From: Eledone cirrhosa
Taxonomy: Eukaryota
Length of the DNA stretch: 64,000 bases
Reading direction: 5' to 3'
Assembly (NCBI GenBank): GCA_964016885.1
Contig: OZ024751.1
Coordinates: forward strand, 2,790,001 to 2,854,000
The translations under genes were made by a program, and so were the position numbers. The notes below the pieces were generated by a model that ran no database searches, was not told the origin of the DNA, and saw only the letters and a program-made list of their open reading frames with translations. Positions 27,948 through 28,605 of the stretch are shown one piece after another. How positions within the stretch are numbered: the stretch's first letter is position 1; the number at the start of each line of letters is the position of its first letter.

Positions 27948-28605
27948 AAGTATGTACACGTACTTACATATATGTATACAGACGTACAGTAGTATGTATA
28001 TATACATACATGCGCATATATATATATATATGTACGTATGGATTCACCGAACATTTATTATAATGCTCGGTGTGTTTGTAAACAAACATTCCGTATTAAG
28101 CCGTAGTGTCTAGCAACCATCGTTGCTCGTTTGTTCAACACTGACAAAGGAACGCTGTACTAGTTTCAAGCTTATTAACTATCGTCAGCAACGTATACCT
28201 TCCTGCCAAATTGTTGAACGTATATACTTACCTTATGCATATTAACTGCTGAGTAGCCCAATTTGCATATCGGGTGGGTTAATCGGCAGGGTGCACCGAA
28301 AACGATTAACGGAAAAAATGAAACGAAAGTTCATTTCCCACTCTTAGTACGGCTGTTACTTAAATATAAGTATGTACACGTACATACATATATGTATACA
28401 GACGTACAGTAGTATGTATATATACATACATGCACACATATATATATGTACGTATGGATTCACCGAACATTTATTATAATGCTCGGTGTGTTTGTAAACA
28501 AACATCCCGTATTAAGCCGTAGTGTCTAGCAACCATCGTTACTCGTTTGTTCAACACTGACAAAGGAACGCTGACCATAGCTAATAAGCTTGAAACTAGT
28601 ACAGA
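27948..28605 (-). mobile_element. Retrozyme-like non-coding element: ~416-nt unit plus partial terminal repeat
   Basis: 27948-28157 is repeated at 28366-28573; hammerhead at 28152-28194; third copy at 45310-45706. Confidence 0.78.
28152..28194 (-). ncRNA. Minimal type I hammerhead
   Basis: Stem I acgttg/cagcgt; CUGACGA; stem II agtt-aata-agct; GAAA; palindromic stem III CUAG; UA. Confidence 0.85.

Follow-up and report, generated by a model that had tools for sequence, protein, structure and literature searches.

Animal non-LTR retrozymes, as described in the available passages of PMC7229834 and of a 2026 preprint (10.64898/2026.07.22.740005), are non-coding tandem repeats with a unit of 150-450 nt, a GC content under 45% and one type I hammerhead per unit, dispersed as thousands of monomers to multimers in genomes that also contain Penelope-like elements (PLEs). 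In those passages both papers state that the way retrozymes enter DNA is open. In PMC7229834 a primed circle is proposed to give rise to tandem cDNA, with PLEs as the candidates; to this the preprint adds the arguments of co-occurrence and pLTR kinship, without settling on a mechanism. Mobilisation by PLEs is argued in them from co-occurrence, shared hammerheads and pLTR similarity, and the passages contain no end maps. Our literature search, with subscription journals largely outside its scope and supplements too (including figure S9 of PMC7229834, an integration model), found no end map of a retrozyme family. The insertions of endonuclease-bearing PLEs are marked by an inverted, 5'-truncated copy and by a tail at one end (PMC8557442 and PMC3846280, in the parts available). 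For the one active PLE studied, the accessible text of PMC11167929 reports that the tail lies between two RT start sites, that both strands are cut and extended, that the protein is a predicted dimer and that hammerhead mutants still insert.

Here we compare with these systems a repeat found in a window of 64,000 nt from Eledone cirrhosa (contig OZ024751.1, 2,790,001-2,854,000; positions below are those of the window). The repeat shares with animal non-LTR retrozymes, in the published descriptions available, all the features listed above, including the presence of PLEs in the genome. It departs from the argument made for them in that the insertions carry the PLE marks themselves, in showing no pLTR similarity to the neighbouring PLE and in being known here from DNA alone. 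With PLE insertion units, as far as the available parts of the three PLE papers describe them, it has in common the 5' truncation, the partial tandems, the adjacent inverted copy, the one-sided tail, the microsatellite or AT-rich target, the two RT start sites and a hammerhead that does not mark the ends; unlike them, it has no ORF, its tail measures 59 nt instead of 30-40, and its unit is copied several turns. Its start sites end in a few bases matching (TA)n, whereas the Anolis enzyme is described as starting at non-homologous sites. We regard the stretch under study as one insertion of a high-copy non-LTR retrozyme with two fixed 3' sites in (TA)n, scattered starts and read-through of the hammerhead cut site, likely made by a Penelope-like RT/GIY-YIG enzyme on uncut, probably circular RNA. 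The features of the locus are collected in Table 1.

Table 1. Coordinates of the insertion, its neighbours and the third copy of the repeat in the window.
Feature	Position	Strand	Remarks
(TA)n target microsatellite, left end	27826..27948	.	basis: sequence
Retrozyme arm, 1.5 units	27944..28573	-	5' end = unit position 1 (28573)
3' end of retrozyme arm, tail-less site A	27944-27948	-	continues into (TA)n
Type I hammerhead	28133..28219	-	predicted cut 28158/28157; basis: sequence
Cut-site-to-cut-site unit	28158..28573	-	416 nt, GC 37%, longest ATG frame 49 codons
Internal 59-nt 'tail' between two fixed 3' ends	28295..28355 (approximate)	-	unit positions 216-275
Inverted second arm, 35 nt	28570..28604	+	unit positions 391 to 3; core with G8C
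LINE fragment, internal (ORF2 with RVT_1, zf-RVT), 164 nt	28602..28765	-	abundant LINE
5'-truncated Penelope-like element PLE-W	28766..30700	+	RT, CX4CxxC linker, GIY-YIG-type endonuclease
Third copy, older subfamily	~45310-45709	-	GUU triplet; flanked by (TA)n on either side; 3' end = site A

A first-pass annotation of this locus had placed the start of the minus-strand arm 416 nt upstream of the predicted cut, and these coordinates are correct. The inverted core that it had located at 28571-28601 is also present, slightly wider than claimed and with one changed core base (Table 1). The first four bases of the inverted and the direct arm overlap (CAGC, 28570-28573) and are common to both, so the joint can be placed only within unit positions 1-4. 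In the direct arm, the putative hammerhead consists of an extended helix I with an internal loop, a CUGACGA core (C3 at 28188), a 4-bp helix II, GAAA, a palindromic helix III region and a GUA triplet. Exact matches to GAAACTAGT number three in the window and are the three hammerhead cores; when one mismatch is allowed there are 15 matches against 16 expected, and hence no enrichment. A search of the window against Rfam returned no hammerhead among the 150 of 213 matches listed, only low-score hairpin and microsatellite matches. The overlapping halves of the arm are identical at 207 of 213 aligned bases, and a strong hairpin stands directly before site B in its internal tail copy. No RNA run is listed among the sequencing runs that contain the sequence, and none of the contigs of four runs, of unrecorded kind, spans the junctions of the window, a result that speaks neither for nor against them. 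The hammerhead region and the LINE both occur in variant form on contigs of two other organisms (runs X4 and X5), and the family is therefore not confined to the genome of E. cirrhosa.

In the 3.0-Gb assembly, to which all genome-wide counts refer, the 16 bases after the cut site have 10,146 exact matches and the next 16 bases 8,179, with 0 matches for reversed-sequence controls. There are about ten thousand copies of this non-coding repeat of ~420 bases with its hammerhead motif. Among 80 distinct full units, 50 measured 420-422 nt and two measured 416 nt, the length of the window copy, whose difference from the family mode sits in an internal (TA)n. The family unit has 38% GC and a longest ATG frame of 51 codons (scored in a four-fold repeat), occurs dispersed from dimers to multimers, and reaches arrays of 10 or more units. 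Each unit contains a type I hammerhead with a conserved core, the unit length falls between 150 and 450 nt, and the repeat shows no LTR structure (PBS and PPT lay outside this test); it lacks the RT or GIY-YIG ORF of an autonomous PLE. In the features that can be tested on its sequence, the element is a non-LTR retrozyme of the animal type. When the family unit is folded, the extended helix I with its internal loop is recovered, and so is the 4-bp helix II, which is short and has a closing mismatch. Helix III is a short palindrome, and the minimum-energy fold of the monomer differs from the active form. A helix III of this type is reported to require dimers (PMC4209133, in the part available), and only one of nine predicted Xenopus dimers self-cleaved according to the accessible passages of the 2026 preprint.

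We gathered 434 hammerhead motifs with a pattern that favours conserved copies, and in this set the core positions are 95-99% conserved. Subfamilies differ at N7, H17, loop II and one stem I pair, which is found as U-G, G-U, C-G, A-U or U-A; we take these sites to be the positions that the hammerhead consensus permits to vary. The older subfamily has CUGAUGA in 27 of 29 motifs, the GUU triplet in 28, and G-U for U-G in stem I. The third copy in the window belongs to it and, as noticed at first pass, keeps stem I paired with changed bases, the U-G pair being replaced by G-U. Its core has A6G, found in two of the 29 older-subfamily copies, and on its 5' side it begins at about unit position 235, away from the cut site.

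The boundary at 28573 had been read as the end of a self-cleaved RNA, joined to the inverted arm by a template switch at stem I. To place it in the context of the family, we mapped the arms in a sample of 80 loci, drawn from the exact-match lists by position along contig 1; two exact segmental duplicates in L083 were left out. Plotted relative to the cut, as had been set out beforehand, the 5' ends are spread over the unit without a peak, with 9 to 20 ends per 42-nt bin all the way around and a mean stop rate of 0.20% per nt in this sample. A single end out of 139 lay within 4 nt of the cut (at position 420, with a 4-nt overlap), against 158 read-throughs. We then searched the whole genome for the post-cut 16-mer preceded by two non-matching bases, a pattern that catches only part of the ends, as does its control. 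It gave 24 matches, of which 15 were true junctions, window included (0.15% of 10,146), and the remaining nine were substitutions, indels or one internal deletion. The control at position 17 gave 35 matches, with 22 true junctions among the 30 inspected, that is, at least 0.27% of 8,179. Since TA precedes the cut and the target is (TA)n, starts masked by a TA match at the cut were searched separately, and 14 further true junctions were found among 30 inspected of 36 matches. Together, the two classes put the starts at the cut at ~0.3%, spread over two positions, which is close to the background.

The 3' ends behaved in the same way. Three of 23 pattern matches at the cut site, a pattern whose denominator is uncounted, were true 3' ends; the other 20 comprised two internal jumps, two short deletions and 16 substitutions or small indels. 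We also considered the short inverted arm as a jump onto cleaved 3' ends and rejected it, as these three true ends among 23 matches are no excess. More than 99% of the copies that reach the cut site cross it. Of the first-pass picture, the reverse-transcribed element stands, whereas the concentration of copy ends at the cut site does not hold for 5' or 3' ends. With a uniform phase, one arm would start at position 1 with a chance of about 1 in 420; such a start is striking in a single window, but among ~10,000 units copies of this kind are to be expected, and 15 were found. As starts at the cut are no commoner than at the control position, we regard the window boundary as a chance event. The joint itself is a 4-nt microhomology of unit positions 1-4 with 394-391 and, since stem I pairs 1-6 with 391-386, it lies outside the register of stem I; comparable short microhomologies link arms all round the unit. 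These results show that the ends of copies can lie elsewhere even where the ribozyme is conserved. Apart from these ends, four loci (L133, L183, L281 and L283), which came from targeted patterns without a control, have internal deletions with one end at the cut or at most 2 nt from it.

In contrast to starts, the 3' ends fall mainly at two fixed sites. Of 138 arm 3' ends, 53 were at site A (position 216 at most), 57 at site B (position 275, 59 nt away) and 28 elsewhere, and those at the two sites nearly always ran into (TA)n, which forms most insertion flanks. Among 185 loci we counted 111 head-to-head pairs, 106 of them with both ends in view: 61 were AB, three AA and one BB, and 41 had at least one non-canonical end. 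Thus, 61 of the 65 pairs with canonical ends are AB (P=4e-14). The joints between arms mostly overlap by 0-6 nt, and some contain small fillers. Two fixed 3' ends with the tail between them, and an inverted 5'-truncated copy with the tail on one side, are the features of Penelope-like insertions, and by this measure the insertion ends carry a Penelope-like signature on a non-LTR retrozyme. The starts of B arms cluster around site A in 16 of 36 cases, whereas A arms start there in 4 of 36 (Fisher P=0.003, over an interval picked post hoc, after seeing the data), as expected if one RT meets the priming site of the other; with junction-selected loci added, the figures are 22 and 10 of 61. In the family of the neighbouring PLE-W, short B arms at L089, L219 and L232 also stop near site A. 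When mammalian L1 inserts by twin priming, a single RNA is primed by both target strands, and the inverted 5' part is joined by microhomology. The repeat resembles it in the two strands that would prime on one RNA and in the microhomology joint of the inverted part. It differs in having no poly(A) end and in using a fixed rather than an opportunistic site for the second priming.

The two arms of a pair also agree in sequence. Of 305 comparisons between the arms of AB pairs at subfamily-diagnostic sites, 288 gave agreement; for random pairs the agreement is 62-78% at six of these sites and 95% at the seventh. Rare variants are common to both arms at 0.33% of sites versus 0.036%, with at least one in 16 of 45 pairs, and units diverge by 2.1% within arms, 2.8% between the arms of a locus and 4.9% between loci. 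Shared variants could partly reflect gene conversion, or a succession in which only a single subfamily is active at any one time. The clearest case is the 9-unit insertion L112, with arms of 3.7 and 5.0 units and two identical variants in every covering unit; genome-wide, this variant pair has nine matches, eight of them in the L112 insertion and the ninth in a different subfamily background. A monomeric circle copied several turns would explain this one locus most simply, though its source array may be missing from the assembly, or conversion may have followed insertion. At L116, one variant is found in one arm only. The arrays L269 (G000:C1:49.58 Mb) and L081 (G000:C1:19.31 Mb) alternate two unit types, a pair of helix II or of helix I being broken in every second hammerhead, and the partner arm of L269 has two of the alternating variants. 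Such alternation could come from a circle of two units or from a duplication in the DNA. L118/L119 is a higher-order array. Arrays of both kinds run counter to a single simple course and show DNA-level expansion or multimeric templates.

A circular template appears to be the best reading of the retrozyme copies. We infer the RNA circle because the cDNA passes through the cut site, the opposite of the reason given at first pass. A separate observation concerns the insertion at L129/L130 (G000:C2:365.19 Mb), where both arms carry an identical insertion of ~19 nt at the cut site; the template therefore already had it, and it is possibly a fragment ligated into the circle.

To the right of the arms, the locus continues with the LINE fragment, joined to the inverted arm by 2-3 nt of microhomology and bluntly to PLE-W. 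A 166-nt block at 28603, considered as a repeat unit of its own, is the interior of this LINE. The window copy of PLE-W has its frame broken near 29140, a stop near 30020 and weak RVT_1 matches, and ends at a tailed site B in (TA)n; its ORF at 28766-30200 belongs to a family separate from the repeat. Its GIY-YIG, linker and hammerhead motifs were read by eye, with no match to them in Pfam or Rfam, and the hammerhead motif, near 30445-30490, is its own and different. The linker and the GIY-YIG domain would point to the Neptune or Nematis clades, as these are described in the available part of PMC8557442. In the PLE-W family there are two (TA)n ends 60 nt apart, and all seven pairs with canonical ends are AB. 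The window composite has a tail-less left end and a tailed right end, as expected of one insertion.

The repeat is fused directly 5' of PLE-W in one of 29 other PLE-W loci (L210/L318), where it does not continue beyond. This fusion and that of the window fit template jumps and equally deletions between neighbours in a shared microsatellite; the fusion at L092 looks like such a deletion, and L107, taken at one point for a second head-to-head fusion, has ~640 nt of other DNA in between. Comparison of the repeat with the 3' 500 nt of PLE-W gave a best match of 12 nt (E=0.025) and revealed no kinship, so that the relation to the pLTR of an autonomous partner described for retrozymes was not found for this element in the comparison with PLE-W. 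Nor is the repeat the terminal repeat of PLE-W, which has its own end and hammerhead motif. Because the two share no sequence similarity, the partner is named by tail length, target, pattern and the two fusions only, and we give PLE-W about an even chance of being the enzyme donor of the repeat.

Other insertions of the same type were observed in the window. Those at 25916-26602, 58003-58808, 57400-57620 and 52875-52983 are 3' fragments of PLE-W or a relative with site A ends in (TA)n and a hammerhead-like motif ~150 nt before site A, and in PLE-W-type tandem copies the tail is the start of the ORF. Another repeat that targets (TA)n, with head-to-head arms and an 80-nt tail, lies at 58826-59008 and 31735-31925; many loci have it next to the retrozyme, with fusions of the two at L092 and L179, and it is probably another Penelope-dependent family. 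Tail length therefore differs between families.

The likely course of events can be pictured as follows. By analogy with other animals, tandem copies would be transcribed, the hammerhead would release 420-nt monomers and a host ligase would close the circle. A Penelope-like enzyme, likely a dimer, would nick both strands of the (TA)n target, and each nick would prime on the same RNA, one of them at site B and the other at site A. Crossing the ligated cut site, in some cases through several turns, the RT would stop at random or at the other priming site, after which the two cDNA ends would be joined via a few matching bases. In the window copy it would be by chance that the joint falls on the four bases just past the cut, and the right arm would be made of PLE-W, the LINE fragment and 35 nt of the repeat, through template jumps or later deletions. 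The most specific form of this reading is a Penelope-type RT dimer that twin-primes by rolling circle on one monomeric, ribozyme-made circle, from two fixed sites and for several turns, with PLE-W as donor and the window as a mixed insertion; all parts taken together, we put it forward tentatively, as less likely than not. For the family as such, cDNA is predicted to start at unit positions 216 and 275, each target strand using one of the two; a single RNA should serve both arms, the cut site should be read through, and PLE-W is the candidate enzyme family, with a tail that matches. Given that both retrozyme papers, in their available passages, state the route into DNA as open, the family is useful for this question.

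The same enzyme and start sites could also act on an uncut linear multimer transcribed from genomic tandem arrays, with no circles or cleavage in the insertion. Arrays of 8-10 and more units exist, some of them alternating (L269, L081), the Anolis element in vitro uses unprocessed RNA and its hammerhead mutants insert normally (PMC11167929, in the part available), and the cluster of B-arm starts near site A fits a linear template as well as a circular one. However, the L112 haplotype has no source array in the assembly, and a hammerhead consensus kept across subfamilies is easier to explain if cutting belongs to the cycle; we find the linear multimer rather unlikely, though clearly to be reckoned with. 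Far less probable is the view that the repeat is no more than the terminal repeat (pLTR) of some autonomous PLE family, seen in the form of short truncated pieces, or else a satellite that multiplied as DNA. All end features match PLE insertions, and retrozymes have been proposed to derive from pLTRs and then to expand locally (10.64898/2026.07.22.740005, in the passages available), but the arms run on into further units and not into an ORF, none of 120 upstream flanks enters directly the coding region of five reference elements, and tblastn over 174 loci showed no PLE frame directly upstream. Moreover, multimers are dispersed with priming-type ends on both sides, and the tail region of the repeat has no ORF start, unlike that of PLE-W.

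The least probable of these readings, and a very improbable one, is that of the first-pass annotation, in which a linear self-cleaved monomer is copied to run-off at the cut site and the RT switches template at stem I. It agrees with the window arm, which starts exactly after the cut, and with the inverted arm, which ends at most 3 nt from it; likewise, for three of ten inverted partners of position-1 junctions (window, L143 and L144) the start falls within the 5' strand of stem I or within the core next to it. Small clusters of this sort are normal, given that at the control position six partners have one microhomology site in common, and the read-through of the cut, a start rate no higher than the control and a register that is not that of stem I all speak against it. 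At the family level this model is refuted, while it could still hold for the window copy alone.

Some further repeats were seen around the insertion. To the left of the target microsatellite, at 27338-27826, there are LINE-like fragments on both strands, which presumably represent the C-terminal part of an RTE-type LINE by the motifs that they carry; Pfam gave no match on these fragments. Finally, mirror-image repeat blocks at 12510-13450 and 15322-16400, and a long perfect hairpin at 49752-49986, are probably other inverted insertions.
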